A stretch of DNA of 64,000 bases, taken from a virus. Lineage: Duplodnaviria; Caudoviricetes. The translations under genes were made by a program, and so were the position numbers. The notes beneath the pieces were generated by a model that was not told the origin of the DNA, ran no database searches, and saw nothing but the letters and a program-made list of their open reading frames with translations. Below, piece after piece: positions 20,249 through 46,688 of the stretch. Positions within the stretch are counted from its first letter, which is position 1; each line of letters begins with the position of its first letter. Where the stretch lies: positions 1,865-65,864 of the IMG/VR virus record IMGVR_UViG_3300033067_002207. One strand, given 5' to 3'.

Positions 20249-20475
20249 TGTCGCTGGATGACCTGAAGAAACAGCGTGGCGAAACGGACGCGAAGTTAGT
20301 GGAAGTCATGTCCGGCATCCAGGAGCGGACGGCCAAGGCCCGCGAATTGAATGCCCTGAACTACAAGGCGATCGACCTGAGCCGCGATCTCCGCGGCAAG
20401 CTGGCGGAAATGGACGCGGCGATCGCCGCCGAGGAGTCGCGGATCGCCGCCGAGGCCGCGTCGAAGACTGAATAA
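20248..20475 (+). CDS. Small coiled-coil protein (possible fibre chaperone)
   Basis: SD CAGGAG; start overlaps the upstream stop; heptad-like composition. Confidence 0.6.
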   Translation: MSLDDLKKQRGETDAKLVEVMSGIQERTAKARELNALNYKAIDLSRDLRGKLAEMDAAIAAEESRIAAEAASKTE

Positions 20476-20684
20476 TGAACGGGTTTTACGACTACCTGCG
20501 GATGGGGCTGGGCTGGTGGAATTCACCAACCGCCCCTGCCCCTGTAGACGGATCGATCCTGGTAGCGGCGGTGGATAGCGTGCCGGCCATCACGATGGCG
20601 GATTACACCGTGCCGACGATCGTGCTGGATGACTTCTCGATCGATTCAGCCGGAATCGATGTTGGCATGGTGGAGATGGTATGA
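20475..20684 (+). CDS. Hypothetical protein
   Basis: TAATG coupling upstream and ATGA coupling downstream. Confidence 0.6.
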   Translation: MNGFYDYLRMGLGWWNSPTAPAPVDGSILVAAVDSVPAITMADYTVPTIVLDDFSIDSAGIDVGMVEMV

Positions 20685-20830
20685 TCCCGGTCAAGCTGAC
20701 AGCCGCACTAAACGCCGGTCGCCGGGGATCGCTGATTCCGGTGTTTTGCCGAAAATGTGGTAAGCAGATCAAACAAACCAAAGGCGGTCCTTGCCTGCGC
20801 GAGGTCTGCGGGGGGTGCATGAAGAAATGA
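20681..20830 (+). CDS. 49-aa zinc-ribbon protein (not in the ORF track)
   Basis: MIPVKLTAALNAGRRGSLIPVFCRKCGKQIKQTKGGPCLREVCGGCMKK; ATGA overlaps at both ends. Confidence 0.65.
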   Translation: MIPVKLTAALNAGRRGSLIPVFCRKCGKQIKQTKGGPCLREVCGGCMKK

Positions 20831-23805: not shown

Positions 23806-24246
23806 ATGACGGTTCCTGTGAAGACTGAGCGAGCCAGGGTTTATGATTTCGTCAAGCGGTTCGACAGCAAGGAATATTGCTTCGACGCCGTGACGATCAA
23901 GAACACGGCTGGCGTCGCGCTCGATGCCGGGGCCATCCTGCCCGGCACCCCGCTGCTGTACAACACCGATCACTACGAACTGGTCGCGGCCGGCTCGGTG
24001 TCCGGCATGGACGCCTTTTTCGCGGACGATCAGCCGTCCGAGGAATTGGCCATCGCGGCGACCAGCACGAAGAAATATCAGATTCTCAAGCGCGGCCCGG
24101 CGATTGTGAATCTCGATCAAATCCCGGCCGACCTGTACACCGGGGCGGCGTTTAACCTGACCACCGTGGCAGACGCGATTGCGGCCTTCAATCCGCCGAT
24201 CGAGGTCTTCCGCGAACCGGAAACGTCGACCACGCAGACGACCTGA
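23806..24246 (+). CDS. Head decoration protein (lambda gpD-like)
   Basis: Position before the capsid gene; PGTPL...RGPAIVN pattern; Thr-rich C-terminus ETSTTQTT. Confidence 0.75.
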   Translation: MTVPVKTERARVYDFVKRFDSKEYCFDAVTIKNTAGVALDAGAILPGTPLLYNTDHYELVAAGSVSGMDAFFADDQPSEELAIAATSTKKYQILKRGPAIVNLDQIPADLYTGAAFNLTTVADAIAAFNPPIEVFREPETSTTQTT

Positions 24247-24284
24247 TTTTTCGCAAACCGCGTCGCTGTTGAAATTCCTGGAGC

Positions 24285-24311
24285 GCGGGCCAACTGGACG
24301 GCCCGCTTTTT
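24285..24311 (+). terminator. Intrinsic terminator-like hairpin between the decoration and capsid genes
   Basis: GCGGGCC-N8-GGCCCGC-TTTTT. Confidence 0.6.
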
Positions 24312-24338
24312 ACAAAGCAAATTCTGACGGAGAGAACC

Positions 24339-25400
24339 ATGTCTTTGGCCGACATTTTCAATGGCGACGCGTTCACGATGCACAATCTGACCGCGTCGAT
24401 CGACAAGCTGCCCTATGTGCCGGGCCGCGTCGAGGAACTGACGCTGTTCACCAACAAGCCGACCACGACCCGCACGGCGTACATCGAAGAACGCCAGGGG
24501 CAACTGGCGCTCCTGCCGGTGAAATCCCGCGGCGAGATGCCATCCAGCACCAGCGGCCAGAACCCCCGCAAGATGCGGCCGTTCGAGGTTCCGCACGTGC
24601 CGCAGCATCGGACCATCCTGGCCGAATCGCTGGAAGGCAAGCGGGCCTTCGGCAGTGAGACGGAGACCGAGGTCTACGCCACACTCGTCAACGACGAGTT
24701 GGCGGAAATGAAGGTCTGGCACGAAGTCACCCACGAATGGCACCGGCTCGGTGCCCTGAAGGGGATCGTGCTGGACGCCGACGCCTCGACCGTCGTCTAC
24801 AACTTTTTTACCGAATTCGGGCTGTCTCAAACGCAGCTTGATTTCAACAAATACGACGGCGGCACGTATGACGCCGCCGATCCGGCGATCCATTTTCGCA
24901 CGCTCTGCACGTCCTGGATTCGGTCGATCCGCGACGCTTTGGGTGCGACCCCGTTCAAGGGCGTCCACGCGTTGTGCGGGGACAACTATTTCGACGCCCT
25001 GATCGAACACGCCACGGTTCGCGGGGCGTACAAAAACTACACCGCGGCTCAGGAAGCCCTGGGCGGGCAGAAGGCTGGCGAAGGCCAGGTCTTCAGCTTC
25101 GGCGGCATCGACTTCGAAAACTACCGCGGCTCGATCGGAGACGTGGACTTCGTCGACACCGACGAAGCGGTGATCTTCCCCAAGGGGGCACCGAACGTCT
25201 TCCTCGAAATCCCGGCCCCGGCGACGTTTATCGAAACGATCAACACCCGCGGCCAGATGCTGTACGCCAAGCAGAAGGTGATGGACTGGGATTTGGGCGT
25301 CGAACTCTTCACGCAATCCAACGTGCTTTACATCTGCACGCGGCCCGGCTGCTTGATCAAGAGCCTGCTCACCAACACCGCCCCTGGCACCGGTTCGTAA
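24339..25400 (+). CDS. Major capsid protein (lambda gpE / Phage_cap_E-like)
   Basis: MSLADIFNGDAFT...LTASID.LPYVP; T.EWHRLGALKGIVLDAD; ELFTQSNVLYICTRP; ends in PGTGS. Confidence 0.93.
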   Translation: MSLADIFNGDAFTMHNLTASIDKLPYVPGRVEELTLFTNKPTTTRTAYIEERQGQLALLPVKSRGEMPSSTSGQNPRKMRPFEVPHVPQHRTILAESLEGKRAFGSETETEVYATLVNDELAEMKVWHEVTHEWHRLGALKGIVLDADASTVVYNFFTEFGLSQTQLDFNKYDGGTYDAADPAIHFRTLCTSWIRSIRDALGATPFKGVHALCGDNYFDALIEHATVRGAYKNYTAAQEALGGQKAGEGQVFSFGGIDFENYRGSIGDVDFVDTDEAVIFPKGAPNVFLEIPAPATFIETINTRGQMLYAKQKVMDWDLGVELFTQSNVLYICTRPGCLIKSLLTNTAPGTGS

Positions 25401-25891
25401 TGTCGGGATTGAAGGCAACTTTCGGCGTTCGTCTCCGGGGCTTAAAATCCCTGCGGGACGGACGCCGTCAGTCTTCCGAGTTGCGTGCGGCAGCGGCGCT
25501 GATCAATCAGGATATCTCCGGGTTCATCTTCAAGCGGTATCAATTGTTTTCACGAGGCGGTGGGGACTGGCCCCCGCTGGCAGAATCCACCAAGCGGCGA
25601 AAGAAGTCTCGCCGCATCTTGTACGAAACAGGGGATTTTGAACGAGGGCTGAAGCAGGGGCTGGATCAGCGACTATCGTGGAACGGCTCCTGGTTGGTCC
25701 TGACCTATACGCTAAAGGCCAGGCGGCGACACAAGCCGTCGAAACTGACCATCCGGGAGTTGCAGGAAATTCACCAGCGCGGGCTGGGAAACAATTTGCC
25801 AAAGCGGGCGACGATGGTGCGACCGGATCGCACGACGATGGAAAAGGTGAAGCGGCGGCTTGTGGCGGCAATTAAAAAAAGAGCAAGATGA
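25400..25891 (+). CDS. Virion morphogenesis / tail completion protein (Mu gpG-like)
   Basis: TAATG coupling; GDWPPLAEST..RK...RILYETG; HQRG...NLPKR. Confidence 0.75.
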   Translation: MSGLKATFGVRLRGLKSLRDGRRQSSELRAAAALINQDISGFIFKRYQLFSRGGGDWPPLAESTKRRKKSRRILYETGDFERGLKQGLDQRLSWNGSWLVLTYTLKARRRHKPSKLTIRELQEIHQRGLGNNLPKRATMVRPDRTTMEKVKRRLVAAIKKRAR

Positions 25892-26415
25892 TCGACCCGT
25901 TCACCCAAGTCTACGACGCCCTGTGGAGTCTCGCCGAGACGCCGCGGGTAACGTCGTTGGTGCGGGTCGGCAATCGCATCAAGCTGGACAGCACCCCGCC
26001 CACGGCCGGCCTGAAGGATCAGATCAGCCAGGCTGACGTCCCGGAGATGGTGCTGGCCCTGACGGCAACCACGGGCAACTGGCTGGGGACGTCATCGTCA
26101 TCCAGTTTCGTGAGGCAATACCAATGGCAGATCTCGACGGGCGATCTGAAGCCGTCGAAGCTGCTGGCGCTCGAATGGGCGCTCAATTGTGCGATGGTCA
26201 ACTGGACCGAGGCGCTGGCGGCGCTGACCTGGTACGGCGAACCGTTTGTCAAACGGACGCAACTGGTCAGCGCTGAGCATGGAGAATCTGACCCGGAAAG
26301 AAACCGCGGGATTCGCGGCTGGTCGGCGTTGTGGACGGCGGAAGTGGAAATGCACTTTCGCACGAGGGATATGCTGGCGTATAACCTGGGAACTGGAACG
26401 GGGAGTGGAACATGA
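25888..26415 (+). CDS. Putative tail terminator
   Basis: Position between the gpG-like and tube genes; beta-rich C-half; ends in GTGTGSGT. Confidence 0.6.
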   Translation: MIDPFTQVYDALWSLAETPRVTSLVRVGNRIKLDSTPPTAGLKDQISQADVPEMVLALTATTGNWLGTSSSSSFVRQYQWQISTGDLKPSKLLALEWALNCAMVNWTEALAALTWYGEPFVKRTQLVSAEHGESDPERNRGIRGWSALWTAEVEMHFRTRDMLAYNLGTGTGSGT

Positions 26416-26951
26416 CCGCAATCAACCCGCTGATCAAAGACGCAATGCGACGGGCCGGGCAGCAGCCGCCGGCGAACGGGGAAGTTCGCATCGGGGACGG
26501 CACCACCGTGGTGCAATGCTCAGTGGGGGCCAGTTCCGCCCCGCTCTCGCCGGCCGACCGGCAACTTCGCATGAACGTGCGAAACTTCCTGATGACGGCC
26601 ACGCTCGACGAACTGAAGAAAGAACTGGCCATCTCCAAGCAGCGTGGTGACGCCAAGCGGGCGCAATTCATCCAGGAGATGATCGACGAAGAAGGGGTCG
26701 GGGCGTCGATGAAGCCCGGCAAGGCCGTGGGATGTGCGAACGGCGGCGTGACGGCCGGCACCAGTGGTGTGGCTCCTCAGGATGCCAACCGCATCCTGGC
26801 CGAACTGAAAAAGCTCGATGCCGCGATCAGGGCGATCCAGAAAATCCAAGACCCCGACCGGGCTCCCGCGACGAACGACTATCGCCAGGCGTTCTACAAA
26901 ATGACGGATGGATTTTGGGCCATGAAGGATGTGCTGGGCGCGGCGTTCTGA
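26412..26951 (+). CDS. Small modular protein with GAS linkers (relative of the polyprotein)
   Basis: VGASSA and GVGASM linkers; ELKKELAISKQRGD module aligns with polyprotein module 1. Confidence 0.7.
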   Translation: MTAINPLIKDAMRRAGQQPPANGEVRIGDGTTVVQCSVGASSAPLSPADRQLRMNVRNFLMTATLDELKKELAISKQRGDAKRAQFIQEMIDEEGVGASMKPGKAVGCANGGVTAGTSGVAPQDANRILAELKKLDAAIRAIQKIQDPDRAPATNDYRQAFYKMTDGFWAMKDVLGAAF

Positions 26952-26986
26952 CTCAACCTTTTTGTGAATCAATCGGAGTGTAAATC

Positions 26987-27889
26987 ATGGGTGGTCCTTA
27001 CAGCGGCGTGGCGGGTTCGGTCAACGGGATCAGTACGGTCCAGGATTGGTCGATCACGGACGGGCATACGCCTCAGGAGTACTCGGCCTCGAACACCTTA
27101 TTCGGCATGGGCGCGGTGCCGGGCATTGAGTTTTGGGAAGGCGGATACAACCACTATGGGCACACGCCCGTAGTGCTGCCCGGTCAGCAGTTCTACTTCA
27201 TCGGGTACGGTGCCCCGCTCAACAACGTGTCCGGCAGCGGCTGGCGCTACGCCGGGTCCGCGTTGTGCAACCAGGCGGTGATCAACTGGAACTGGGCGTC
27301 CGGTGCGATTATTGCCGTGCAGGAATCGTTCAAGGGTCACCTGGACCTGGTCGAGCAAGGCGACACGGGCAGTCAGATTCTCGATGAATCGATCCCGACC
27401 GTCCCAAAAATCGCCTGCACGAAGATCGAATACTCGCTCGACGACAGCACGTTCGTCGAATGGGATAACCTGGTTTCGGCGTCGCTGACGCTGACCAACG
27501 AACTGCAGGATTACATCAATTCGTCCACGGTCGTCGACGACGCCGGCACGTGCCGCATCTGGACCGGGCGTCGCCGGGGCCGCTACAACTGGACGCTGGC
27601 CGTGACTGAGCAGGATGTTCGCCGCGACCTGTTCAGCAAGGGGCAGGTGCTGATGTTGCGACTGTACGTCACCAGTTCGCTTTACTACGAACTCAAATGG
27701 GGCATGATGCGGGACGTCACGGGCATCCAGGTCAATCGTCAGACCGGGGCCATCGTCCAGCAAACCGTCAACTTCAGCATGTGCGGCATGGACACGGACG
27801 CCGGCAGCTACGCTGCCGCAACTGGGCACGTCTTGATGCCTGGCGGCGAACAATGGTGGCCGCTGACGGGCACCGGCACCGGAACGTAA
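26987..27889 (+). CDS. Tail tube protein, apparently two tandem tube domains
   Basis: VQDWSIT...S..T...G...WEG pattern repeated in the second half (LVSASLT...SST...G...W); ends in TGTGTGT; precedes chaperone and tape measure. Confidence 0.75.
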   Translation: MGGPYSGVAGSVNGISTVQDWSITDGHTPQEYSASNTLFGMGAVPGIEFWEGGYNHYGHTPVVLPGQQFYFIGYGAPLNNVSGSGWRYAGSALCNQAVINWNWASGAIIAVQESFKGHLDLVEQGDTGSQILDESIPTVPKIACTKIEYSLDDSTFVEWDNLVSASLTLTNELQDYINSSTVVDDAGTCRIWTGRRRGRYNWTLAVTEQDVRRDLFSKGQVLMLRLYVTSSLYYELKWGMMRDVTGIQVNRQTGAIVQQTVNFSMCGMDTDAGSYAAATGHVLMPGGEQWWPLTGTGTGT

Positions 27890-27900
27890 GCGAGGAACCG

Positions 27901-28170
27901 ATGGAATCACGCAGGTCGCGTTACATGGCCAGCCTGGCGGCTCAGCGGTCGCCGGGCTGTTCAACTGCCGTTGCTGCCGGTATTCTGGCGCAGGAAAGCC
28001 CGGAGTTTTCCCAGCAGGTCGCTCAGCTTACCCAGGCCGTGCAACAGGCCGTCAGCCTGGCCCAACAGTTGCGGTCTAAGGCTGCGGGGCGTGGGACCGG
28101 CTCGGTGATCCGTGACCGGATCGAAGGCCCGCTGACGGACGCCTTGGGAGTTCTCCGGCGGTTCAATTAA
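27901..28170 (+). CDS. Small modular protein (relative of the polyprotein)
   Basis: SD GAGGA; MESRRSRYMASLA...STAVAAG followed by a helical hairpin. Confidence 0.7.
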   Translation: MESRRSRYMASLAAQRSPGCSTAVAAGILAQESPEFSQQVAQLTQAVQQAVSLAQQLRSKAAGRGTGSVIRDRIEGPLTDALGVLRRFN

Positions 28171-28184
28171 CCAAGGAGAAACCC

Positions 28185-28809
28185 GTGCCGCAGATGTCAG
28201 CCGCTCCAGCCCCGATCGAACTGGGCGGCGTCACTTACCGCATGTCGCCGCTCGACGACGCGGACTATGACGAACTCACCAACTGGCTCAAATCCGAGAT
28301 CATCAACACCGCCCGCTGCGCGATCACGTCGGATATGTCCGACGACGAGCGACGTGAGATAATGGCGGCGGCGATGGCCGAGGCCGCTCCCATCCGGTTC
28401 GGAGAGCTAAACTCCAAGCCGTACCTGAAGAGCATCTACGCGTTCTCCCGGATGATCTGGCAGGGGCTGATCAAACTGCACCCGCGGGTTCAGTTAGCGG
28501 ACGTGCGAGCGGCCCTGGCGGGGAACGCCGTTGCGATCCAAGAGGCCAGCCGGGTCTTTATGGAGATCAATTCCCAAAAACACCGAGGAGCCGGCGAAGA
28601 CGCCGGCCAAGAACCCCGCGGGCCGCGTGCTGACCAGGGAAGAAGTGTACCGGCAACTGGCGAAGCTGTACCGCTACACGCCAGAGGCCATTCGCCGAAT
28701 GACGCCTTACCAGCAGTTCCAACTGCTTACCCCTGACGCACAAGAAGAAATTATCGAGTTTGACTCAAAAGAGATGCTGCAATCATGGATGGCGAGTCGT
28801 TTAAAATAG
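28185..28809 (+). CDS. Tail assembly chaperone pair (G, 28185-28736; G-T via frameshift to 28809)
   Basis: SD AAGGAG; IELGGVTY.MSPL...DYDEL; overlapping second frame encodes Y..LAKLY.YTP..I..MT.YQ, typical of the gpT-like part; directly upstream of the tape measure. Confidence 0.75.
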
Positions 28810-30830
28810 AAACGGACTTCGGGGCGATCGACGAAATGGTCGCCCGCTCGATCGAGAAGTTCGGGCAACTGGCCGTCGACGCGATCGACGCGATGAACCA
28901 GATCAACGACTTCGTCATCGACGAGATGACCGTCGCGTTCCAGGCCGGCATGGAATCGATCGCCAAGACGTTTGACTGGATGAGCGAGCAAGCGACTAAA
29001 GCGTTTGGGGCGATCACCACCGCCGCCTCGGCAACCTGGGCCGCGATCACCGGGGGGCTGTCGGCCATCCCCGGCATGATCACCGGGGCGTTCTCCGCGG
29101 TCCTTTCACCGATCAAGACGGTGTTTAACGGCATCTGGTCGGCGGCAAAGACGGTTACAGGCTGGATCACCGGGGCGTTCAGCACGGTCGCGGGATTCAT
29201 CAGCAACACGTTCTCCGGGGCTTACGGGGTCGTCAAAGAAATGCTGCCCCTGGCGGGCGTGGGATTCTTTGCCGGCTTGTCGGCGGGGTTCAAAGAATTA
29301 ACCGCCAGCGAGCAGGCGTTTACCCGCGTGTCGGCGGCGGTCAAATCGACTGGCCAGGTCGCCGGATTCACCGCCGAGCAGCTTGCCGAGATGGCCAGCC
29401 AGATGGAATCCAACACCCGCTTCGGCGACGACGTCGCCCAGCAGGCTCAGGCCGTCGCGCTGCAGTTCAAGAACGTGCGCGGGAACGTGTTTGCGGACGC
29501 CCTGAAGGTGAGTGCGGACGCCGCGATCAATTGGGGCATGGACCTGACCGCGGCCACAGAGAAGGTGACGTCGGCGTTGGACGACCCGCTGGCGGGCTTC
29601 CAGAAGCTCGCCCGCGAGGGAACGAAGTTTTCCGAAGCGGAAAAAAGACAGATCGAGACAATGGTCCAATTCGGGAACGTGGCTGGCGCTCAGCGAATCA
29701 TCCTGAATCGGCTGTCTGATCAGGTCGGCGGGGCGGCGACGGCTGACGCGAAGACGTTCAGCGGAGCGATGGCTCAGGTCAACAACGCGATGGGCGACGC
29801 CTGGAAAGCGATCGCCGGTGCCCTGACGCCGGCTGTGCAAGCGCTCGGCGACTGGTTCCTGCGCGGCGCAAAAGTCATGGAGTCGTGGGGGCCGGGCCTG
29901 AAGACGCTGATCGAGGAAACCATGAACTGGGCGACGCAGTCGTCCGGCTTCCTGTCCGACTGGGCCGAGAAGGCTCAGGAGTACTTCATGGTTGCGTTTG
30001 ATTTCGCGATCGACGCGGCGACCAAAGCGTTCACATTCATCGAAACGGCGCTGGGCGACATGCCGGGGTTCATGGAGGCGGCGAAAGCAAAGTTCAATCT
30101 TTATTGGGAGCAAATCAGCCAGTTCATTCGCCAAACATGGGAAACCATCGACGTCAGCCTGCGAAACATTTGGGACGACCTGGTGCAGTACATGATGTCG
30201 AAATTCTCAACCTTCACGAATTACATGGCGAACAAGATCGCCAACATGCCGGGGTTCGCGGACTGGTTTGGGGTCAGCCAAGAAGACCTGAACGAGACGC
30301 TGCGGGAAATGCAGGGAGCGGGAATGCCGGGCCGCGGGCCTCGGGCGACGGCCAAAGGGCAGACGGACGAGGAGAAGGCCCGCCTGGCGGAACTTCGCGA
30401 AGCGGCCGACGCCGCAGGAAATGCCTTCGGTGCCAAGTTCGGGGAAAACTTCGAAAAGAATAAGGCGATCGTCGATGCGTTCCGCGTTCGCATTCAAAAG
30501 CTATTTGGGCTGGAAGGCGAATCGCTGGACATGGCTGCAAAAAAGAGCGCGGAAGAATTCGTGTTAAACAAAGAAGGTAAAGACGCAGAGGAAAAAAGCA
30601 GCGCCGGTCAATTCGAAGACCTGCTGTCGTTGCAGAAGCGGATCACCGGAGCGGCGGCGGCGAAGTCGCCTGAAGCCAAAGCGACGGAGACGCAGACGGG
30701 CATCCTGGTTAGTCAGTTTAAGGCGATGATGCAGCAGTCTGATAAGAACACCAAAGAACTCAAGGGTGCCATCGATCAGACCACGAAGGCGGTGGATGAG
30801 CAGCCGGCCGCGGCGGTTGCGGCCCCGTAA
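28785..30830 (+). CDS. Tape measure protein
   Basis: 681-aa Ala-rich helical protein with 11-residue W/F-spaced repeats and an E.A..RV.A..KSTG...G.T..QL..MA motif. Confidence 0.9.
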   Translation: MDGESFKIETDFGAIDEMVARSIEKFGQLAVDAIDAMNQINDFVIDEMTVAFQAGMESIAKTFDWMSEQATKAFGAITTAASATWAAITGGLSAIPGMITGAFSAVLSPIKTVFNGIWSAAKTVTGWITGAFSTVAGFISNTFSGAYGVVKEMLPLAGVGFFAGLSAGFKELTASEQAFTRVSAAVKSTGQVAGFTAEQLAEMASQMESNTRFGDDVAQQAQAVALQFKNVRGNVFADALKVSADAAINWGMDLTAATEKVTSALDDPLAGFQKLAREGTKFSEAEKRQIETMVQFGNVAGAQRIILNRLSDQVGGAATADAKTFSGAMAQVNNAMGDAWKAIAGALTPAVQALGDWFLRGAKVMESWGPGLKTLIEETMNWATQSSGFLSDWAEKAQEYFMVAFDFAIDAATKAFTFIETALGDMPGFMEAAKAKFNLYWEQISQFIRQTWETIDVSLRNIWDDLVQYMMSKFSTFTNYMANKIANMPGFADWFGVSQEDLNETLREMQGAGMPGRGPRATAKGQTDEEKARLAELREAADAAGNAFGAKFGENFEKNKAIVDAFRVRIQKLFGLEGESLDMAAKKSAEEFVLNKEGKDAEEKSSAGQFEDLLSLQKRITGAAAAKSPEAKATETQTGILVSQFKAMMQQSDKNTKELKGAIDQTTKAVDEQPAAAVAAP

Positions 30831-30839
30831 GGAGACGAG

Positions 30840-31676
30840 ATGACCACCTGGACCTCTGGCGGGTCTCCATCGTGCGCCGAAGAAGCCGGCAGCATGAAGG
30901 AAGACTTCGACGACGAACACGGCCTGATGAAGGCGTCGGTGACGTTGCGGTGCGCTTATGCGGATCGGCACGCGCTGGTCGCAAACATTGTTGGCAATCG
31001 CCGCCCCTGGCCGAAGGGATCGCCGGGTCCGGTTCCGCTGGCGTCGACGGCCAGTATCGTGCCCGTGATGACGCCGGGGCTCGCCTCAGGCGACGAACTG
31101 ATTGTCTACGGCGAGTCGCTGGTCACGATCAATTACAACACCAAGATCGTCGATCAATTCTCTGAGTCGATCGAGCCGACCAGTGAATTTCTGACGCTCG
31201 ACCACCGCTGGTTTCGCTGGTCGCCGTACAGCGGACCGATCGGGATTCAGGTCGGCACCGGGAGCGGGGCCGATACGATCGTGTTCACGGACTACGACCC
31301 GCTTCGTGAAGAGGAGGCCCCCGGCCGACAGATGCGTGGGATCAACTTCGTGCGGACCGACTTCAACCAGGTCACGGTGCCGCAGGAGATCGTTGACTAC
31401 ACTGGATGCGTGAACTCCGACACCGTCACCTGGTCGTTGCTGGGCCTGACGTCTGATCCGGAGACGCTGCTCTACCTGCCGCCTTCGATTACGACCAAGG
31501 TCGATTCCTCGAACACGCGGAAGTTCGACATCACCAAGAAGTTCAATTACAACCCGAACGGGTTTAATAAGTACTTCCGTGCGGCGACCGGGAATTTCCA
31601 GTACATCTACGTGGCCGGCACGACCACGATCTTCAAAAGTTATCCGCCAGCCGTGTTCGCGGGGGTTTTGCTGTGA
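30840..31676 (+). CDS. Tail tip protein (distal tail-like)
   Basis: First gene after the tape measure; beta-rich; SD AAGGAG. Confidence 0.6.
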   Translation: MTTWTSGGSPSCAEEAGSMKEDFDDEHGLMKASVTLRCAYADRHALVANIVGNRRPWPKGSPGPVPLASTASIVPVMTPGLASGDELIVYGESLVTINYNTKIVDQFSESIEPTSEFLTLDHRWFRWSPYSGPIGIQVGTGSGADTIVFTDYDPLREEEAPGRQMRGINFVRTDFNQVTVPQEIVDYTGCVNSDTVTWSLLGLTSDPETLLYLPPSITTKVDSSNTRKFDITKKFNYNPNGFNKYFRAATGNFQYIYVAGTTTIFKSYPPAVFAGVLL

Positions 31677-32653
31677 GTGACCGCAACCACGACCTGATCG
31701 CCCGCATCCAGGCCGGCGACCCGATCAGCGCCAGCCAGTTGCTGAACAAGCTGGTTGACGCCGCGAACCGCCAGGACGCCCGCCAGGTGCTGCGGGGGGT
31801 CGATGCGGGGCATTGGCTCCGTTGTGTCTCGACCGTTGACGCTCCCGCCTGGTCTATCCTGGGGATCGACGACGTCGAGATCAATTATGACGGTTTGACA
31901 CTGCAGCTTTCTCAGGCAACAGAAAACCACGATCTGTTTGCGGCCAACGAGGGATATCGACTGACCGCCAACGACAAGGGTTGGTGCAAGCTGATCAACG
32001 AGACGCACCCGGTGATGGTCGACTGCCTGGCCCCCGCCGTCGCGTATCTTAGCGACCTGACGATCGGTGGATTTTCGGTCACGCTGGGCGATAGCGGGAC
32101 TGGCACGGGCACCGGCACGGGATCAAGCGGCACCATTACGCCGCCCGGCCGCTTGTGGGCGCTATCGCCCCGCGACCTGGAGCTACGCTGCGCCGTGATG
32201 GGGAGCCGCACCACCACCACGCTGCGTGCGGCGGTGTTCCTGCTGGCCGGCCCCGATCCGGTGATCGGCGGCGGAATCTCGCCGCCGGCCATTCTCGCGG
32301 ATTGCTACATGGTCCCGGATGGGATCACCCCCGTTTTCTCCACAACCTATCCGGTTTATTTCAACCTGTTGAACGGCGTTGTCATTCCCTACAGCGACTA
32401 TGCGGGCGTCACCAGTGCGACGACTGTTACGGCGCTGAAGCTCGGCAACCAGTGGGTCGCCATCGCAGGCGGCTTAACGGGCCTGAGCGGCACAAAGAGC
32501 AGCGGCGGCATCACATCGGTTTACGGCTCAGAGGTCTCGGCGTCTAACTGGTGCAACGCGATCATCCCTAACGGGGCGTCTGTTATCGCGGTAATGATCA
32601 ACGAATCAATGATGATCATCGGCGACTGCTGCTACACGGGCACGGGAAGTTAA
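31673..32653 (+). CDS. Tail tip structural protein
   Basis: GTGA coupling; internal SGTGTGTGTGSSGT; ends in CCYTGTGS. Confidence 0.65.
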   Translation: MSDRNHDLIARIQAGDPISASQLLNKLVDAANRQDARQVLRGVDAGHWLRCVSTVDAPAWSILGIDDVEINYDGLTLQLSQATENHDLFAANEGYRLTANDKGWCKLINETHPVMVDCLAPAVAYLSDLTIGGFSVTLGDSGTGTGTGTGSSGTITPPGRLWALSPRDLELRCAVMGSRTTTTLRAAVFLLAGPDPVIGGGISPPAILADCYMVPDGITPVFSTTYPVYFNLLNGVVIPYSDYAGVTSATTVTALKLGNQWVAIAGGLTGLSGTKSSGGITSVYGSEVSASNWCNAIIPNGASVIAVMINESMMIIGDCCYTGTGS

Positions 32654-32661
32654 AAAGCATC

Positions 32662-34554
32662 ATGCCGCTGCTGTCTCAAAAAAACTGCGGCTGCACCTGC
32701 CGCAATCTAACGGAATGGGGGCCGACCGCGGACGGCCTGCCCGTCAGTTCCTGCCCGAACTGCGCCTCGGCCGGCACGTACAACGTCGGAACCGGATCGG
32801 CGTACGTCAACGGCGGTCCGTGCGAGATGATCGCCATCTTCGACTGTCCGATCAATTACGACGGGCTGGAAACCCGCATCCTCGGTGGTGGCAGCATCTT
32901 TACCAACATCGTGCCGCTGATCAAAGATAAGCTGGTCGTCGAGGACTGCCGGTACACGCTCAGGAAGCTGGCGACGGATCAGGGAACGGGGAGCCTGGTT
33001 GACGCGACGGGCACCGGCACGGGCGGCGGGACTGATTTTTTAGGATGGGGAATCGGCGACTGTGATATCGACTTCATTGTCGGAAAAATTCTCAACCGCG
33101 CCTATCGGCGGCTGTTCAACGCGGAGTGTAAGCACCCGAACATCGACGGCGTGCCGCAATGGCCGCAGTTCTTTCCGGGGGTGTGGGGCGGAACCGGCAG
33201 CGTCGATTATTATTACGACACACCGCGATTCGGCTGCAAGCTGGTGCCCAACCCGTATATTTCACAAGCCCCGCCGCTCGGCTGTGGTTGGTACGACCTG
33301 ATTGGCATGGTACTTTGCGGGCCGGACGCCGGCCTGTGCGCGGACTTCGCGTTCGGTCAGGGAACCGAGAATTATTCACAGTATGTCCAGGTTTTGGAAC
33401 GATACACCCGAATCACGTGGGAACTGGATTTCAGCGGGGCACCCAGCGCGACACTGACTGGCCGCACCGACAGCGGCATCGAGATTGTTTTCTCGACCAG
33501 TAGCTGGGTCTGCGGCGCGCGCAACACGCTGACGATGACCACGTCGCCGGCTCCGTCCTGGACCGCGGCCCGTAAGGTGTGCATCGTGCCGGGCGAGACC
33601 GGCTTTACAACGCCCTGCACCGACAAAGAGGACGTGACGGCGTGCTGCGACCCTGGCGTGGCTCAGGGGCAATATTACTACAACTCCCCCGGCTGCGCGT
33701 TACCGACGATTGGATTCTGTGCGGATCGGTACGCCTCGCTGGACGCGACGCCGGCCCCTGATTGGGTCAAAGCGTTGCAGGGAAGCCTGAGCGCAAGCTG
33801 CGGGGTGTTTTACGATTCCACGACCTATGACGGAAATTGTGCCAAGCCGCCCCCGTTGTCCTGCCCGACCGGGAACGGGCCGGTTGTGATTCAAGGAACC
33901 TGGGACGGGGCTTACAGCGGGTTCACGATCCACCTGCTGACCTGGTGCGACGCCGGGGTGTGGAAAAGCTCGATGTTCTGCGAGGGGATCGTACTGATCT
34001 CAGGCAACGCTGGGTTTGCAACTGTGCAAACCGCGATGTGCCTGAACGTCAACTGCACGATGGTGATGTGCCATCCGGTGTTTGGCTATACCTGGGTCTG
34101 CGATGCGCCGGGGACATACACTATCCCAGGCACCGGAAGCGGCACGGGCAGCGTAGATTGCGTGACTCGCGCTCCATGCTGCTGCACGCCGGAAAGCAGC
34201 GGAACGATTGACACGGAGTGCTGTCCCGACAACCTGCTAAACGGGACGCTGTATATTGACGTGACCCATTCCACGCTCGGATTTCTCGGAACGATCACCG
34301 TCACCCATACGGGCGTGGAGTGGGAAGGGAGCGGCGTTTTTTCTGGATGCACACTGACAATCAACGCTCTAAAGTGCGTGACATCTGGTGGCGCGCATTG
34401 GGATTTGGACTACGGAACCGGAGGCGGTCCATACTTCGTTTCCGCGTCCAGCGAATCATGCGACCCGTTTGCGTTGACGTTTACCGGAGACGCACGCCCA
34501 GGCGGGTCGACCTGTTTTCCGGCAGGCACGCTGACATTTGATGTATCTGCTTGA
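32662..34554 (+). CDS. Very Cys-rich tail fibre / receptor-binding candidate
   Basis: About 39 Cys in 630 aa by hand count; several GTGS/GTGT stretches; 3' part lower in GC. Confidence 0.7.
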   Translation: MPLLSQKNCGCTCRNLTEWGPTADGLPVSSCPNCASAGTYNVGTGSAYVNGGPCEMIAIFDCPINYDGLETRILGGGSIFTNIVPLIKDKLVVEDCRYTLRKLATDQGTGSLVDATGTGTGGGTDFLGWGIGDCDIDFIVGKILNRAYRRLFNAECKHPNIDGVPQWPQFFPGVWGGTGSVDYYYDTPRFGCKLVPNPYISQAPPLGCGWYDLIGMVLCGPDAGLCADFAFGQGTENYSQYVQVLERYTRITWELDFSGAPSATLTGRTDSGIEIVFSTSSWVCGARNTLTMTTSPAPSWTAARKVCIVPGETGFTTPCTDKEDVTACCDPGVAQGQYYYNSPGCALPTIGFCADRYASLDATPAPDWVKALQGSLSASCGVFYDSTTYDGNCAKPPPLSCPTGNGPVVIQGTWDGAYSGFTIHLLTWCDAGVWKSSMFCEGIVLISGNAGFATVQTAMCLNVNCTMVMCHPVFGYTWVCDAPGTYTIPGTGSGTGSVDCVTRAPCCCTPESSGTIDTECCPDNLLNGTLYIDVTHSTLGFLGTITVTHTGVEWEGSGVFSGCTLTINALKCVTSGGAHWDLDYGTGGGPYFVSASSESCDPFALTFTGDARPGGSTCFPAGTLTFDVSA

Positions 34555-34800
34555 TCACGGCAACAGCATCGGATTGCAACCACAGTCTCGATATCCAGCC
34601 TCGTAGCTAAACTTCGCTTGTTGAGAAACCATCCCAGCCGCGTTTCGATATCCTTCTCTGACACCGCCATCTTTGGCGGTGGTCAACTTGGAAGCGATGG
34701 CAAAATCCAAGCCGAACCACCAGAACCCGGAGACGACCGCCGCCGTCGCGATGTGAGATAAACCGTAAGCAACCATCTGCGAGCGATAGGTTATCATCAT
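34555..34800 (-). CDS. Possible small antisense membrane protein
   Basis: Fills the gap between two + strand genes exactly; hydrophobic segment IATAAVVSGFWWFGLDFAIA. Confidence 0.35.
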   Translation of the reverse strand: MMITYRSQMVAYGLSHIATAAVVSGFWWFGLDFAIASKLTTAKDGGVREGYRNAAGMVSQQAKFSYEAGYRDCGCNPMLLP

Positions 34801-36058
34801 GCTCTTTCCTGAATGCGAACAGTTCCGCGGGCGAAAAAAACAGATCTGCCGAGGCGAGGCTGGCGTCGAGCTATCCAATCAGTGGCGTTCAAAACGCTGG
34901 GGGCTTCCTCCGATCGCGCTGACCGCCGGCGGCGGGACCGTCCCGTCAAACCCCAGCGACCCAACCTCATTACCCACAATCGTTATCCCGCCCCAGCCGG
35001 TCAGTCAAGCGCTGTTCCGCGGGCCGGGGACGGTTTTGAAGGATATCTTCGCCGAACTGGGCCAGACATACGCTCCTGACGCAACCTGCCCGTGCGCCGA
35101 GACCGCGGCCCTGATGGATTCCCTGGGACCGGAAGGCTGCGAACAACACGCCGCGGTGCTGACGGAGCGGCTGCTGGCATCGGCCGCGACGCTGACGGCG
35201 GTGGAAACAGCCCGCCTCGCTTGGCGCGCCCTGATAAAAGGATATGCTTTTGATCTGTCTGCGGCGGGCCTGCTCAGGCTGGCCATCAAGCGATCCCGCG
35301 AAGAGCGGGACAAACATCAGGCAAAGGCGACGACAATGCGATGGTCCTACGGTGTGACGACGACCCTGGAGCGGCGGCATACGCTGCTGCCGAAGACGCT
35401 GGCGTCGCTGGCCGCAGCCGGATTCGACGATCCGCTGATCGGCGTCGACGGTTGTGATCAGTGCGAAACGTACCGCGAACTCGGCCGCATGTTCACGACC
35501 CGCAAATACCTGGGCAACAATTTTGCCAACTGGTTTCTGACCGCACTCGAGGTGTACCTGCGAGACCCGTTCGCCGAACGGTACGCCATGTTCGAGGATG
35601 ACTTCCTGATCTCGGCCGGGGCGAAGGCGTACCTGGAGCAAACCACCGGCGACCCGCGGGCGTACTACAACCTCTTTACTCGACCCGAGACGCAGCAGCG
35701 GGTCAAGCCGGATTACACGGGCTGGTTCTTGACCAACCAGGAAGGTTTTGGAGCCGTGGCCCTGGTCTTCAGTCAGACGGCGTTTCGCGCTCTGCTCTGC
35801 GAGCCGGGGATGCTGCTGCATCCCAAGAACCAGCAGATGAACCCGAACAAGAAGTTCGGACAGTTGGCCCGCGGCAAGGAGTACGTCGACGGCTGCATCG
35901 TCAGCGCATTGTCGCATCACGGCATCCTGGAATTCTGTCATTCGCCCAGCATCGTGCAGCACGTCGGCATGGACAGTTCGTCCGGACATCGCCAGTATCC
36001 TCAGGCGACGACGTTCCGGGGCGAGGAATTTGACCTGCGATCGCTTTTGAAAGCCTGA
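34799..36058 (+). CDS. Cys-motif N-terminal domain fused to a GT-A-like glycosyltransferase domain
   Basis: N-terminal C..F...KQIC and CPC...MDSLGPEGC; C-half WSYGVTT..R, AMFEDD and SPSIVQHVG. Confidence 0.7.
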   Translation: MLFPECEQFRGRKKQICRGEAGVELSNQWRSKRWGLPPIALTAGGGTVPSNPSDPTSLPTIVIPPQPVSQALFRGPGTVLKDIFAELGQTYAPDATCPCAETAALMDSLGPEGCEQHAAVLTERLLASAATLTAVETARLAWRALIKGYAFDLSAAGLLRLAIKRSREERDKHQAKATTMRWSYGVTTTLERRHTLLPKTLASLAAAGFDDPLIGVDGCDQCETYRELGRMFTTRKYLGNNFANWFLTALEVYLRDPFAERYAMFEDDFLISAGAKAYLEQTTGDPRAYYNLFTRPETQQRVKPDYTGWFLTNQEGFGAVALVFSQTAFRALLCEPGMLLHPKNQQMNPNKKFGQLARGKEYVDGCIVSALSHHGILEFCHSPSIVQHVGMDSSSGHRQYPQATTFRGEEFDLRSLLKA

Positions 36059-36060
36059 CC

Positions 36061-36879
36061 GTGATCGACGAAAACGTGCTGATCCCGAAGGCGTCGAAGT
36101 GGCGATTGGGAGACGAAGCCCCCCGGCTCCCCGTGGAGCGGCTGAAAGACATCCACCGCGGCCAGGACATCTATGTGATTGGCTCCGCGGCCAGCATGAA
36201 CCACGTGCGGCCGAGCTTCTTTGAGAACAAGGTCGCGATCAGTGTGAACTACGCCTATCGGCAGTTCCCCTGTGAATGGGTCGTCACCAAAGACTTGTGC
36301 CAGACGGAGTACAACGAGGTCGGGCATCGCCTGATCACGTCTGATTATCTGTGGGGCATCTACCGCGAAAAGCAGCAGGTATTTTACGGCCAGGAACCGT
36401 ACTTCGTGTTCACCCACGTCGACAACCTGACCGATGAGATCGACCTGGACGTGATCGGGTCAGAGAAGATCTTCGTGGGCAAGTCGTCGCTGACCAGCGC
36501 CATGCACGTGGCCGCTCACATGGGGGCGGCAAACATCATCCTGTGCGGCGTCGATGGCGGCACGCTGGACGGAGAACTGCAATACCACGATTATTACAAC
36601 CGGGTAAAAGACCCCGCGGGGATCGAGACATATCACAAGTTCGTCGCCTCGATCATGTGGCAAACGCGGGCAGTCCGGGATAGGCTGCATGCCGTCTACG
36701 GATGCAACGTGTATTCGCTCAACCCGTTTATCGGCTTTGACCTGGAAGGCCACAAATATGAACGTCCTGATCCCGGCCAAGGGGACGTCCCGCAGGATTC
36801 CCCTGAAAAACCTGCAGCCGCTGGGGGCGATGCCGCTGCTCGGCTGGGCGATCTGGAAAGCCCGCCGCTGGCTTCCTGA
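36061..36879 (+). CDS. Maf / DUF115 (MptE-like) family protein
   Basis: LKDIHRGQDIYVIGSAAS...ISVN...SAMHVAAHMGAANIILCGVD signature. Confidence 0.8.
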   Translation: MIDENVLIPKASKWRLGDEAPRLPVERLKDIHRGQDIYVIGSAASMNHVRPSFFENKVAISVNYAYRQFPCEWVVTKDLCQTEYNEVGHRLITSDYLWGIYREKQQVFYGQEPYFVFTHVDNLTDEIDLDVIGSEKIFVGKSSLTSAMHVAAHMGAANIILCGVDGGTLDGELQYHDYYNRVKDPAGIETYHKFVASIMWQTRAVRDRLHAVYGCNVYSLNPFIGFDLEGHKYERPDPGQGDVPQDSPEKPAAAGGDAAARLGDLESPPLAS

Positions 36880-37381
36880 GGCGGTGATCCACGTGGCGAC
36901 CGAGCATCCGGAGATCGGCCGCTATGCGATGGACCAGGGCTGCACGCTCTTTCCGCTGACCGCCGCGGACATCGCGGATCAGCGAGACGCAGCGGGGCCG
37001 CTGACCGACTTCCTGGCGGCGACCGTCGCCCGGCCGGTGATCTCGCTCGACTGCTCGTTTCCATTTCTGCTGCGCAGCGAACTAAACGCCGCCCTGAGCG
37101 ATCCCCGCGACTTTGTCCGGCCGGTGCTGCGCCGGACGCTGCACCTGGAGTCGTACGGTAACACGCTGTCGCAGGACATCCCGGAGCAGGCGGCGCTGCA
37201 GAGCAATTACCTGGTCGCCCGCCGTTGGGAGCCGGTGCGGTCCGAGGAATGGCTCGACCCAAAGCACACGCTGCCGGTCAGTTGGCTGTCATCGATCAAT
37301 ATTGATACGCCGCAGGATTTACAGCACGCCCGCTGGATTGCACAATTCATCCGCCCCGAACACCTGGACGATACGTTATGA
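36758..37381 (+). CDS. Acylneuraminate cytidylyltransferase-like (NeuA/PseF/KdsB family) protein
   Basis: LIPAKGTSRRIPLKNL..LG and INIDTPQD motifs. Confidence 0.85.
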   Translation: MNVLIPAKGTSRRIPLKNLQPLGAMPLLGWAIWKARRWLPEAVIHVATEHPEIGRYAMDQGCTLFPLTAADIADQRDAAGPLTDFLAATVARPVISLDCSFPFLLRSELNAALSDPRDFVRPVLRRTLHLESYGNTLSQDIPEQAALQSNYLVARRWEPVRSEEWLDPKHTLPVSWLSSINIDTPQDLQHARWIAQFIRPEHLDDTL

Positions 37382-38355
37382 ACGAATCCGAATGCCTCGC
37401 CAAAATGAAAGCCCCCGGCGATCGCCGGGGGAACTGCTCAGGCCCGTGGTGCGGCGGGGTCATGCAAATCTGGATCACCCGTGCGTGCGACCGGGCGTGC
37501 TTCGGCTGCACCCAGGGCTCCAATCTGGCCGGTGCGCCGGGGCGAATGACGCCCGATCAGTTTCGCACGGCGGTGCGCTCGGTCGCGGATTATTACGGCG
37601 TGGTCGGTGTGTTTGGGGGGAACCCCGCGTTGCACCGCGAGTTCGAGGAAATCTGCGCGATTCTGACGGAGTACATCCCGTTCGAACGCCGCGGCCTGTG
37701 GTGTAACAATCCCCTGGGCAAGGGGGCCATCATGCGGAAGACGTTCAACCCGGCCGTGTCCAACCTGAACGTGCATCTGGACCGGGCGGCGTACGACGAG
37801 TTTAAGCGGGACTGGCCTGAATCCAACCCGTTCGGCCTGACGGAAGACAGCCGGCACAGCCCGGTCCACGGCTCGATGGTGGACCTGGGCATCCCTGAGG
37901 ACGAACGCTGGGAGCGGATCAGCCGCTGCGACATCAACCAGCGGTGGTCGGCGATGATCGGGGTGTTCCGCGGCGAGGTGCGGGCCTGGTTCTGTGAGGT
38001 CGCCGGCGCGCAAGCGATGCTCAAGCAGCACGACCCGGAGTATCCGACGACGGGCATGCTGGTCGAGGAGACGTACGACACGCGGGCATATCATGGACCC
38101 GGCCCCTGGTGGCAGCGGCCGATGTCCGAATTCGCGGGCCAGGTCCGGCAGCATTGCCATAACTGCCTGGTGCCGCTGAAGGGGTACGGGGAACTGGCCT
38201 GCTCGGAAAGCGGGTCGGAGCAAACGACGCAAAGCTACGCGGACGTGTTCAAGCCGAAGCGGCCGGGGCGTCCGGTGCAGATCGTGCAGTTGATGTCCGA
38301 ACTAGGCCGGCCGCTGGAACGAACGACCGATTACATCCAAAACTCGGCAAAATGA
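37378..38355 (+). CDS. Radical SAM protein
   Basis: ITRACDRACFGC (CxxxCxxC) and FGGNP; further Cys later in the protein. Confidence 0.85.
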   Translation: MNESECLAKMKAPGDRRGNCSGPWCGGVMQIWITRACDRACFGCTQGSNLAGAPGRMTPDQFRTAVRSVADYYGVVGVFGGNPALHREFEEICAILTEYIPFERRGLWCNNPLGKGAIMRKTFNPAVSNLNVHLDRAAYDEFKRDWPESNPFGLTEDSRHSPVHGSMVDLGIPEDERWERISRCDINQRWSAMIGVFRGEVRAWFCEVAGAQAMLKQHDPEYPTTGMLVEETYDTRAYHGPGPWWQRPMSEFAGQVRQHCHNCLVPLKGYGELACSESGSEQTTQSYADVFKPKRPGRPVQIVQLMSELGRPLERTTDYIQNSAK

Positions 38356-38558
38356 TTCAAACGGTGTTCGGCAAAAATCTCGTTCGCCTCAGAAAGGCGA
38401 GGGGGCTGAGCAGAAAGCAATTGGCGGCGCTCGCGTCGGTGCCGTACGGGACGGTCGCCAATGTCGAAGGCGAAGCGGGGATGAACCCCTCTTGGGAAAC
38501 GGCCTGCCGCCTGGCCCTCGCTTTGAATGTCACAGATATCCGGGAATTTCAAAAATGA
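38352..38558 (+). CDS. XRE-family HTH protein
   Basis: FGKNLVRLRKARGLSRKQLA...TVANVEG...NPSW...LALAL; ATGA-coupled on both sides. Confidence 0.9.
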   Translation: MIQTVFGKNLVRLRKARGLSRKQLAALASVPYGTVANVEGEAGMNPSWETACRLALALNVTDIREFQK

Positions 38559-40054: not shown

Positions 40055-40069
40055 CGTAAGGAGAACGCC

Positions 40070-40789
40070 GTGGAAGACAAATACGCTGCCGAGCGGAAGT
40101 TTTGGGCCGAGGAATTCGACCGCTACCTGATCTGGTACGAAGGCCGCATCCCGGAATTCTACGGCGTGCCGGCTCCGCACCCGAAGGCCCGCATTACGCG
40201 GTACGGCGACATGCGGCTGAACGCCTTGGAGACCTGGATCAACGCGGACCGCTGGCGGTACTGCAAACACCTGTTTATCGAGCCGACGTACTTCAACGGC
40301 AAGAACGTCCTGGAGATCGGACCTGGGCCGCTGGGGCTGGCGCGCTGGTTTGTCGGGGCCGCGTTGCAAGGCATCGAACCACTGGTAGATTTTTACGCCT
40401 CGGTGGGATACCCGGTGTTCGATCAGCCGATCAGCTACTCGCGAGACCGGATCGAGGATTCCATAATCCCAACCGGCAGCATGGACACCATTATCAGTGT
40501 GAACGCGATCGACCACGTGGATGACTTCGAAGCCGCGGCCCGTCAGATTCAAAGAATCTTGCGGCCGGGCGGGGAGATCCGTCTCGAGACGCATTATCAC
40601 GAGGCGACCACGACGGAGCCGTGCGTGCTGACGGATGAGCGGGTACGGGCGGCGTTTGACCAGGTGCCGCTCAAGAAGCTGGCCGAATCGCCGTCGTCGC
40701 TGTTCTACCCGCGCGGCACGCACCCGGAATCGGACCGCTTCGTGGTCTGGTCGAACAAGGATTACCTTTACACCGGATGGGCTTACTGA
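40070..40789 (+). CDS. Class I SAM-dependent methyltransferase
   Basis: VLEIGPGP motif I; NAIDHVDD...RILRPGG. Confidence 0.9.
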   Translation: MEDKYAAERKFWAEEFDRYLIWYEGRIPEFYGVPAPHPKARITRYGDMRLNALETWINADRWRYCKHLFIEPTYFNGKNVLEIGPGPLGLARWFVGAALQGIEPLVDFYASVGYPVFDQPISYSRDRIEDSIIPTGSMDTIISVNAIDHVDDFEAAARQIQRILRPGGEIRLETHYHEATTTEPCVLTDERVRAAFDQVPLKKLAESPSSLFYPRGTHPESDRFVVWSNKDYLYTGWAY

Positions 40790-40790
40790 A

Positions 40791-46677: not shown

Positions 46678-46688
46678 CGGCTCGCCTT

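Follow-up and report, generated by a model that had tools for sequence, protein, structure and literature searches.

Do the short Gly-Thr repeats in the capsid and tail proteins of an uncultured phage mark the places where its virion is glycosylated? The question was raised by a window of 64,000 nucleotides (62% G+C), comprising bases 1865-65864 of the 65,864-bp virus record IMGVR_UViG_3300033067_002207, in which tags of the type GTG[ST] recur in structural proteins encoded upstream of an enzyme operon at 34799-41453. A sequence-only reading of this DNA had proposed that a shared tag directs the enzymes of the operon to coat the virion in glycan. We found that the tags were enriched and conserved as peptides, and that one operon gene, 34799-36058, encoding a 419-residue protein referred to here as p419, occurred together with them. 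With modest confidence, we favour the reading that the Gly-Thr tags are a sequon for virion O-glycosylation, with p419 as the tag-linked transferase and the other operon genes as lineage-specific elaboration.

The phage genome is about 66 kb. From left to right, its late region starts with a Mu-F-like head protein, a protease/scaffold, a decoration-like protein and the capsid (24339-25400). Two or three small connector proteins follow, and then the 300-residue tail tube (26987-27889), chaperones, the tape measure protein (28785-30830), a protein in the position of the distal tail protein (Dit), and two Cys-rich tip/fibre proteins. The enzyme operon lies after the tail genes on the same strand. 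All tags listed in the sequence-only reading, as well as the ETSTTQTT end of the decoration protein, were recovered at its coordinates. The proteins concerned are the following, with lengths in amino acids (aa) and open reading frame abbreviated as ORF:

23806-24246, plus strand: head decoration-like protein ending ETSTTQTT, a Thr-rich tail with no GTG[ST] tag.
24339-25400, plus strand: major capsid protein of the lambda E family (PHROG 29 at 5.5e-54) with the C-terminal tag APGTGS.
25386-25397, plus strand: GTGS copy in the last residues of the 24339-25400 product.
25888-26415, plus strand: connector or neck protein of 175 aa, tagged LGTGTGSGT at its C-terminus (26389-26412); the earlier label 'terminator' is unconfirmed.
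26987-27889, plus strand: tail tube protein with a modelled duplicated tube fold, ending LTGTGTGT (tag TGTGTGT, 27866-27886).
27901-28170, plus strand: tail assembly chaperone-like ORF, a role assigned from position, with one internal GTGS (28093-28104).
30840-31676, plus strand: distal-tail (Dit-position) protein with one internal GTGSG (31254-31268).
31673-32653, plus strand: Cys-rich tail-tip protein with an internal (GT)4GS (32096-32125) and the end YTGTGS (32639-32650).
32662-34554, plus strand: Cys-rich fibre or receptor-binding protein in which GTG[ST] occurs internally six times.
62204-63457, minus strand: ParB/DNA-methyltransferase fusion ending GTGSQP, non-structural.
63521-63928, minus strand: 135-aa ORF ending GTGS, non-structural.

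The internal run of the tip protein reads GTGTGTGTGS from 32096, and the copies in the fibre protein are at 32788, 32983, 33010, 33190, 34129 and 34141. Family searches with the 25888-26415 product gave no match, and PF03864 was present on all capsid homologues. The AlphaFold (AF2) model of the tube protein had a predicted local distance difference test score (pLDDT) of 90.7, with residues 297-300, inside the tag, below 50, and the tube tag is predicted to be disordered. In Foldseek, this model matched the tail tubes of T5 (pb6) and DT57C at E-values of 1e-10 to 7e-10, and also that of P74-26, at up to 2e-7. By its modelled fold, the product of 26987-27889 is a tail tube of the T5 pb6-like duplicated type, which confirms the name given to it in the sequence-only reading. 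The duplicated two-domain fold, as in T5 pb6 and P74-26, implies trimeric rather than hexameric rings for a tube of this modelled type.

Composition did not explain the frequency of GTG[ST], which the sequence-only reading had proposed to compare with shuffled proteomes. The 80 predicted proteins contained 21 copies, compared with a mean of 1.13 (standard deviation 1.06, maximum 6) when residues were shuffled within each protein 5000 times. Of these copies, 17 fell in the nine ORFs called from 24000 to 34600, with 0.47 expected. Six proteins carried a copy within their last eight residues, compared with 0.018 expected and a shuffle maximum of 1. GTGS was the commonest tetrapeptide of the proteome (13 observed, 0.47 expected). 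The codons of the tag varied among copies and among homologous tags in relatives, including switches between TCN and AGY serine codons, so the constraint acts on the peptide and not on the DNA. This bears out the claim of the earlier reading that selection is on the peptide, and the sequences point to purifying selection on it.

Two explanations at the level of DNA were rejected. A DNA motif or repeat was ruled out because the codons differ at every position. Ribosome-binding sites of downstream genes were ruled out as a general cause: a GGGAG-like stretch was present in tag DNA only at the end of the connector gene and, weaker, at the end of the tip gene, and the internal copies, the capsid tag and the tube tag were without it.

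Relatives were collected as homologues of the capsid in protein searches, and flanking DNA was retrieved for many of them. The tail-tube protein alone as query found no relatives in IMG/VR, and the capsid alignment served instead. A metagenome scan with this alignment returned mostly short contigs and added one tagged and 13 untagged informative loci. The capsid homologues formed a graded series, with a common core ending near '...CTRPxxLIK' and a lineage-variable tail beyond it. In the tagged relatives with 54-65% capsid identity (L095/L001, L097, L098 and G002/L007), the capsid, the 175-aa connector and the tube ended in G[ST]G[ST]-type tags, whose positions were conserved despite different codons. 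The connector homologues of these phages ended in GTGTGS, GTGS or GTGSA, and variant ends were seen in the L095 tube (TGTGA) and the L097 connector (GAGT). The L095 tip protein carried internal and C-terminal tags at the same two positions as in the window, the L095 fibre carried five GTG[ST] copies at positions matching the window fibre, and the Dit-position protein of L095 kept its copy (residues 140-142); Dit homologues were found in all relatives.

Equally close relatives had no tags. In G001/L004 and G003/L009 the tube stopped at WWPVPQS, the connector of untagged relatives ended in DSNSEV or QNSGA, and the fibres of the complete or nearly complete G001 and G003 contained zero motifs. In other relatives the ends were exchanged as a set. 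The capsid, connector and tube ended in (A/V)APTTT repeats in L099 (10001-13085) and, independently, in L418 (5308-8586). The capsid ended in PSDDDLIS in both L006 (6383-7462) and L419 (10001-11089), and a tip protein, encoded after the Dit-position gene, ended in PCPDDDLIS in L006 (12715-13500) and in PCPNDQIS in L419 (16299-17099). This acidic DDDLIS/NDQIS ending does not look like a glycosylation site. In L044, of which 5.8 kb are known, the capsid and tube both ended in GSGS. That unrelated proteins change their tag together is an argument for a reader common to all of them. The TQTT-type tail of the decoration protein was kept in most relatives, both p419-positive and p419-negative, and it is therefore a separate conserved tail outside the GTG[ST]/p419 pairing.

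Several further observations were made on these relatives. L099 carries a weakly GT2-like 481-aa gene (19312-20757) after its tail genes and no p419, and in L006 and L419 a radical S-adenosylmethionine (SAM) gene directly follows the DDDLIS/NDQIS-ended protein. A hydrophobic-hydrophobic-Ser end is shared by many of the family's capsids. The C-terminal sequence '-G-L-[IVY]-S' (SGLIS, GLVIS, SGLYS, GLVS) recurs on capsids of p419-negative relatives, namely the G001 capsid (L004:9998-11071) and capsids P0032, P0034, P0040, P0042 and P0046, and also on two proteins (1625-2386 and 6561-6881) of L119, an unrelated p419 locus.

The enzyme operon comprises seven genes:

34799-36058, plus strand: p419, 419 aa, candidate tag-directed transferase from a structure match and tag co-occurrence.
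36061-36879, plus strand: Maf/MptE-like (DUF115) protein, possible nonulosonic-acid transferase (PF01973 at 3.8e-5).
36689-37381, plus strand: cytidylyltransferase resembling PseF or KdsB (PF02348 at 8.7e-9).
37378-38355, plus strand: radical-SAM enzyme (PF04055 at 1.1e-6; weak BtrN match).
38492-40054, plus strand: two-domain glycosyltransferase, Caps_synth/Gly_transf_sug followed by GT2 (GT32/GT2 fusion).
40070-40789, plus strand: SAM-dependent methyltransferase.
40635-41453, plus strand: 272-aa GT-A-like protein with weakly GT2-like homologues, in tagged and untagged relatives.

p419 alone was found in all the tagged phages and in none of the untagged ones. Homologues lay directly after the fibre gene in L095, L097, L098, G002/L007, L019/L349 and L115; in L097 and L098 the DNA examined ends in the first part of the p419 gene. 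No homologue was found in G001, G003, L099, L006, L008 or L010. The records of L010, L044, L021, L067 and L028, which also gave none, are incomplete and therefore uninformative. In the capsid family, all seven p419-positive phages, the window phage (G000) included, had G[ST]G[ST] in the capsid tail, compared with one of about 28 p419-negative loci (L026, GSGSGSA), the latter set consisting of loci with 9.9 kb or more of DNA beyond the capsid on its downstream side. In a capsid tree built with the tails left out, the p419-positive rows formed three well-supported groups with untagged ones between them.

The same association was seen in more varied phages. Scanning IMG/VR with the p419 alignment gave 80 loci, with G+C contents from 0.32 to 0.65. 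The two genes directly upstream of p419 in these loci contained 278 G[ST]G[ST] in 56,724 residues, or 4.9 per 1000 aa, where composition predicts 16 (about 0.3 per 1000 aa). The density was 0.45 per 1000 aa in the other genes of the p419 loci and 0.20 in capsid-anchored control loci. At least three motifs were present in the two upstream genes in 37 of the 80 loci, and in many loci a protein of some 310 aa encoded upstream of the p419-like gene ended in '...C..GTGT'. The pooled unit was (T)-G-T-G-[T/S], in runs of two to four units, with 169 T and 16 S in the first unit.

Residues 1-177 of p419 make up a helical domain in which a Cys motif is conserved, and residues 178-419 a GT-A domain. Neither p419 alone nor a 33-member profile of its family gave a sequence match in Pfam, PHROG, NCBIfam or the PDB, and none of the 33 members matched a Pfam glycosyltransferase family, GT13/GNT-I included. 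A tblastn search of 50,697 deposited phage genomes with p419 gave no match at E 1e-3. The AF2 model (pLDDT 84) aligned in VIA-align with POMGnT1 (5ggi_B) at Z 18.3 over 216 residues with a root-mean-square deviation of 3.2 A, and with GnT-I (1foa) at Z 17.2; Foldseek agreed with these GT13-type matches. POMGnT1 and GnT-I stood clear of the general GT-A background of Z 13-14.6, to which ppGalNAc-T2, mimivirus R699 and LH3 belong. Residues D267, D268, D364, E378 and H388 were invariant in the 33 homologues. According to the model, p419 is a GT-A glycosyltransferase with an intact DxD-type pair and a C-terminal His, and it belongs to a transferase family that had no earlier annotation and whose presence predicts the tag. 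Its neighbours in the ESM Atlas were almost all viral and some carried GNT-I or GT25 labels; some structural neighbours carried PF03071 in 16-54% of their members.

The GT-A fold, the DxD-type acidic pair and the C-terminal His are the features that p419 shares with the GT13 enzymes POMGnT1 (5ggi, 5ggf) and GnT-I (1foa). POMGnT1 acts on O-glycosylated peptides, and GT13 enzymes extend an already attached mannose. Unlike these enzymes, p419 has an N-terminal Cys-motif helical domain without counterpart, and its identity to them is only 10-14%, with no match at the sequence level.

The remaining operon genes did not track the tags. The 36061-36879 product scored 24 bits against PF01973, below the gathering cut-off of 34.6, and its similarities to PHROG 4603 'alpha-2,3-sialyltransferase' (1e-5) and to MptE-like Atlas neighbours are leads only. 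The 36689-37381 product matched TIGR03584 PseF at 1.5e-7, far below the cut-off, and no nonulosonic-acid synthase or aminotransferase was found among the ORFs scanned. Homologues of the Maf-like, cytidylyltransferase and 40070 methyltransferase genes and of the full-length GT32/GT2 fusion were present in L095. Neither the Maf-like nor the cytidylyltransferase gene had a homologue in G001-G003 or in the parts examined of the other relatives, and the Maf-like protein as query gave no match in five related records. The tagged G002 (complete, 66 kb) lacked the Maf-like, cytidylyltransferase, GT32/GT2 and 40070 methyltransferase genes; the Maf-like/cytidylyltransferase pair therefore cannot define the tag. 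Radical-SAM homologues, the best conserved of the module, were found in G001, G002, G003, L006 and L008 regardless of tags. The untagged G001 and G003 carried the radical-SAM gene, the 272-aa GT-A-like gene and GT2 genes, the GT32/GT2 fusion giving partial matches in both. The ORFs of the Maf-like and cytidylyltransferase genes overlap by about 190 nucleotides and those of the methyltransferase and 272-aa genes by about 155; in both pairs the downstream gene probably starts further inside its listed ORF, the cytidylyltransferase for example near 36758.

The sequence-only reading had suggested examining the co-occurrence of tags and operon in related phages. Its first gene, p419, followed the tags and the operon as a whole did not. 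The proposed tie between the tags and a phage glycosyltransferase is thus supported for p419 and not for the whole of 34799-41453. Tags in relatives without the operon, named in that reading as counter-evidence, gave a mixed picture, since G002 is tagged and lacks four operon genes but has p419.

According to the reading we favour, the (T)-G-T-G-[T/S] runs of two to four GT units would serve as O-glycosylation acceptor tags inside the infected cell. In the capsid, connector and tube they would be displayed on disordered tails at the C-terminal end, and in the tip and fibre proteins both C-terminally and at internal sites. p419, encoded directly after the fibre gene, would be transcribed with the late genes, recognise the tags, and add or extend a sugar on their Thr/Ser. 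In the window phage and L095, the downstream enzymes (the GT32-like/GT2 fusion, the GT-A-like protein, the Maf-like transferase with the CMP-sugar synthetase, the methyltransferase and the radical-SAM enzyme) would elaborate the glycan, and head, tail and fibres would all end up coated in it. We infer sugar attachment, the acceptor residue, the identity of the sugar and whether p419 would start or extend the glycan.

To our knowledge, virion glycosylation has so far been shown only for some actinobacteriophages. Freeman and colleagues (2023, Cell Host Microbe 31:1216) reportedly demonstrated virion O-glycosylation in Che8, Corndog and Myrna, and reportedly saw little evidence of virion glycosylation in the wider phage population. 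In mycobacteriophages, glycans are found at the C-termini of capsid and tail-tube subunits, and the glycosyltransferases are phage-encoded (Freeman et al. 2023, as described in PMC12619734 and PMC11256854). The comparison with these phages made in the sequence-only reading was apt, and by this analogy the virion of the window phage is probably sugar-coated, glycan attachment being inferred. As in mycobacteriophages, glycosyltransferases are encoded by the phage itself: p419 with its GT-A fold, the protein with GT2 and Gly_transf_sug domains, and the 272-aa protein with GT2-like homologues. The C-termini of capsid and tube are again the proposed targets, their Ser/Thr-bearing tails being present and conserved and that of the tube predicted to be disordered, and a glycan coat on the particle would be expected. 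The window case differs from the mycobacteriophage precedent in enzyme family, tag, target range and host. Because p419 had no homologue in the 50,697 phage genomes, its family differs from the mycobacteriophage type, p419 being the only enzyme compared. In the window phage, unlike in mycobacteriophages, a defined Gly-Thr repeat serves as the tag, the range of targets extends further, to the connector, tail tip and fibres and to internal sites, and the host is probably of the Planctomycetota and not of the Actinobacteria.

Two other systems offered partial parallels. Maf systems O-glycosylate Ser/Thr of surface polymers in the cytoplasm before assembly. As in flagellin glycosylation by Maf (DUF115/PF01973) with CMP (cytidine monophosphate)-pseudaminic or CMP-legionaminic acid, the DUF115-like gene of the window adjoins a PseF/KdsB-like cytidylyltransferase gene. 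Unlike in Maf systems, the window matches lie below curated cut-offs, the ORFs scanned include no nonulosonic-acid synthase, and the pair is absent from the tagged G002. The low-complexity Ser/Thr-rich acceptors resemble those of mucin-type glycosylation by ppGalNAc-transferases and of the serine-rich-repeat adhesins modified by GtfA/GtfB. The (APTTT)n tails of relatives look mucin-like, and the structural match of ppGalNAc-T2 to p419 (Z about 13-14.6) is a general fold resemblance only. In contrast to the window phage, these systems have no defined G-T-G-[ST] unit.

A number of results weigh against the tags being a p419-linked sequon for virion O-glycosylation. The non-structural proteins 62204-63457 and 63521-63928 bear GTGSQP and GTGS ends, a caveat that the sequence-only reading had already raised, and exposed fibre-like proteins at 17409-20248 are without the tag. 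The closest folds of p419, those of GT13, extend a protein-bound sugar and do not start on bare peptide. The capsid tree gave only two to three phylogenetically independent contrasts, all concordant, which are too few for a sign test to reach significance. There was no motif in the two upstream genes in 26 of the 80 p419 loci, and no enrichment of Gly-Thr motifs near the distant p419 homologues in Planctomycetota genomes. A p419-like gene was present in only one of 48 IMG/VR records with a GTGTGTG[ST] ORF, and in none of the six such records that are at least 90% complete; (GT)n runs are therefore widespread without p419, which counts against exclusivity. In p419-less phages these runs are either read by other enzymes or plain linkers.

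Two side observations concern the tag-bearing proteins. The GTGSQP and GTGS ends of the two non-structural proteins may reflect chance bystander substrates or packaged proteins, or may count against a virion-only role. ORFs with 34 to 110 overlapping G[ST]G[ST] were found at L252:3-3962 (minus strand), L293:2327-3955, L225:2-1021 (minus strand) and L181:2635-4260 (minus strand), in mostly fragmentary records with no p419-like gene.

The Gly-Thr runs could also be unmodified flexible hydrophilic linkers or tails that act as fibre spacers or in solubility or assembly, with the link to p419 due to shared ancestry of a tail-tip/fibre/p419 module. A linker would be pointless at the very end of four different proteins, and the joint switch of capsid, connector and tube to another tag or to none also weighs against it. 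Evidence against shared ancestry came from the IMG/VR loci, where the 54 proteins with at least three motifs fell into 21 unrelated BLAST clusters and phmmer found no homologue of the window tip or fibre protein in the 80 p419 loci, so the motif is not inherited with a single fibre family. Close p419-negative relatives were also without motifs in homologous or analogous proteins. We consider this explanation unlikely, although the 47 of 48 run-bearing records without a p419-like gene, the resemblance of the internal run of the tip protein to an interdomain linker and the small number of independent contrasts all agree with it.

Modification of phage DNA or of the host envelope (superinfection exclusion, receptor masking) by the operon, p419 included, would leave the tags unrelated to it. 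DNA glucosylation and serotype conversion are the best-known roles of phage glycosyltransferases (reviewed in PMC12619734), and the lack of motifs near the distant p419 homologues on Planctomycetota chromosomes would fit such a role. However, the operon comes immediately after the late tail genes and has the same orientation as they do, and no DNA-hypermodification enzyme, hydroxymethylase or base-modification gene was found in the ten ORFs scanned in the replication module (42190-55944). This explanation is quite improbable, as it also leaves unaccounted for that the presence of p419 predicts tags in neighbouring proteins. Least likely of all, and in our view very improbable, is that the tags are read by a factor other than a glycosyltransferase (an evaded protease or C-terminal degradation, an assembly chaperone, a kinase or a cross-linking radical-SAM enzyme) while p419 acts elsewhere: the glycosylation-unlike DDDLIS/NDQIS tags, the GTGS ends of two non-structural proteins and the conservation of the radical-SAM gene are in its favour, but that gene is present regardless of tags, no protease, kinase or ligase gene tracks them, and the sole gene that does encodes a GT-A enzyme with intact catalytic residues.

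The glycosylation reading can be extended to a tag-and-writer code, which we put forward as a doubtful but real possibility. In a single capsid lineage, a shared C-terminal tag on capsid, connector, tube and sometimes tip would be swapped as a set among (GT)n, (APTTT)n, GSGS and DDDLIS. Each tag would have its own transferase, such as p419 for (GT)n and the 481-aa GT2-like protein for (APTTT)n, and phages of Planctomycetota and neighbouring phyla would in this way choose their surface coat. Such a tag would be portable to engineered proteins for cytoplasmic glycosylation.

A planctomycete host is likely from the distribution of homologues. In species genomes, p419-like genes were found overwhelmingly in metagenome-assembled genomes (MAGs) of Planctomycetota, with single cases in Opitutaceae, Caulobacter, Dehalococcoidia and Gemmatimonadota bins, and one capsid homologue was labelled Phycisphaerales. 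Distant p419 homologues (22-36% identity; L299-L336) occurred in genomes of Planctomycetota and in a small number of MAGs from other phyla; several of the homologues lay on contigs of 170 kb to 3.7 Mb (L315, L326 and L331: 0.8-3.7 Mb). These distant Planctomycetota genes may be the cellular source of the phage enzyme.

If virion O-glycosylation at Gly-Thr tags is borne out, glycan coats would be widespread in environmental phages, and the glycosyltransferase clusters beside the tail genes of so many uncultured phages would be explained. It would also provide a short, testable sequon for cytoplasmic O-glycosylation in bacteria, of use in glycoengineering and in the design of phage surfaces. A phage group from another host phylum here offers a defined tag, a transferase family that predicts it, and natural tag-swapped and untagged comparisons. 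Searches of the literature returned nothing relevant on either a Gly-Thr sequon or the glycoproteomics of phages.

A last observation concerns the fibre-like 467-aa protein at 18845-20248. It contains an internal duplication, in which the stretch '…YVDTEVAAILAAVDTEVAAIKVKTD…' occurs twice, and poly-Gly/Thr stretches, with no GTG[ST].

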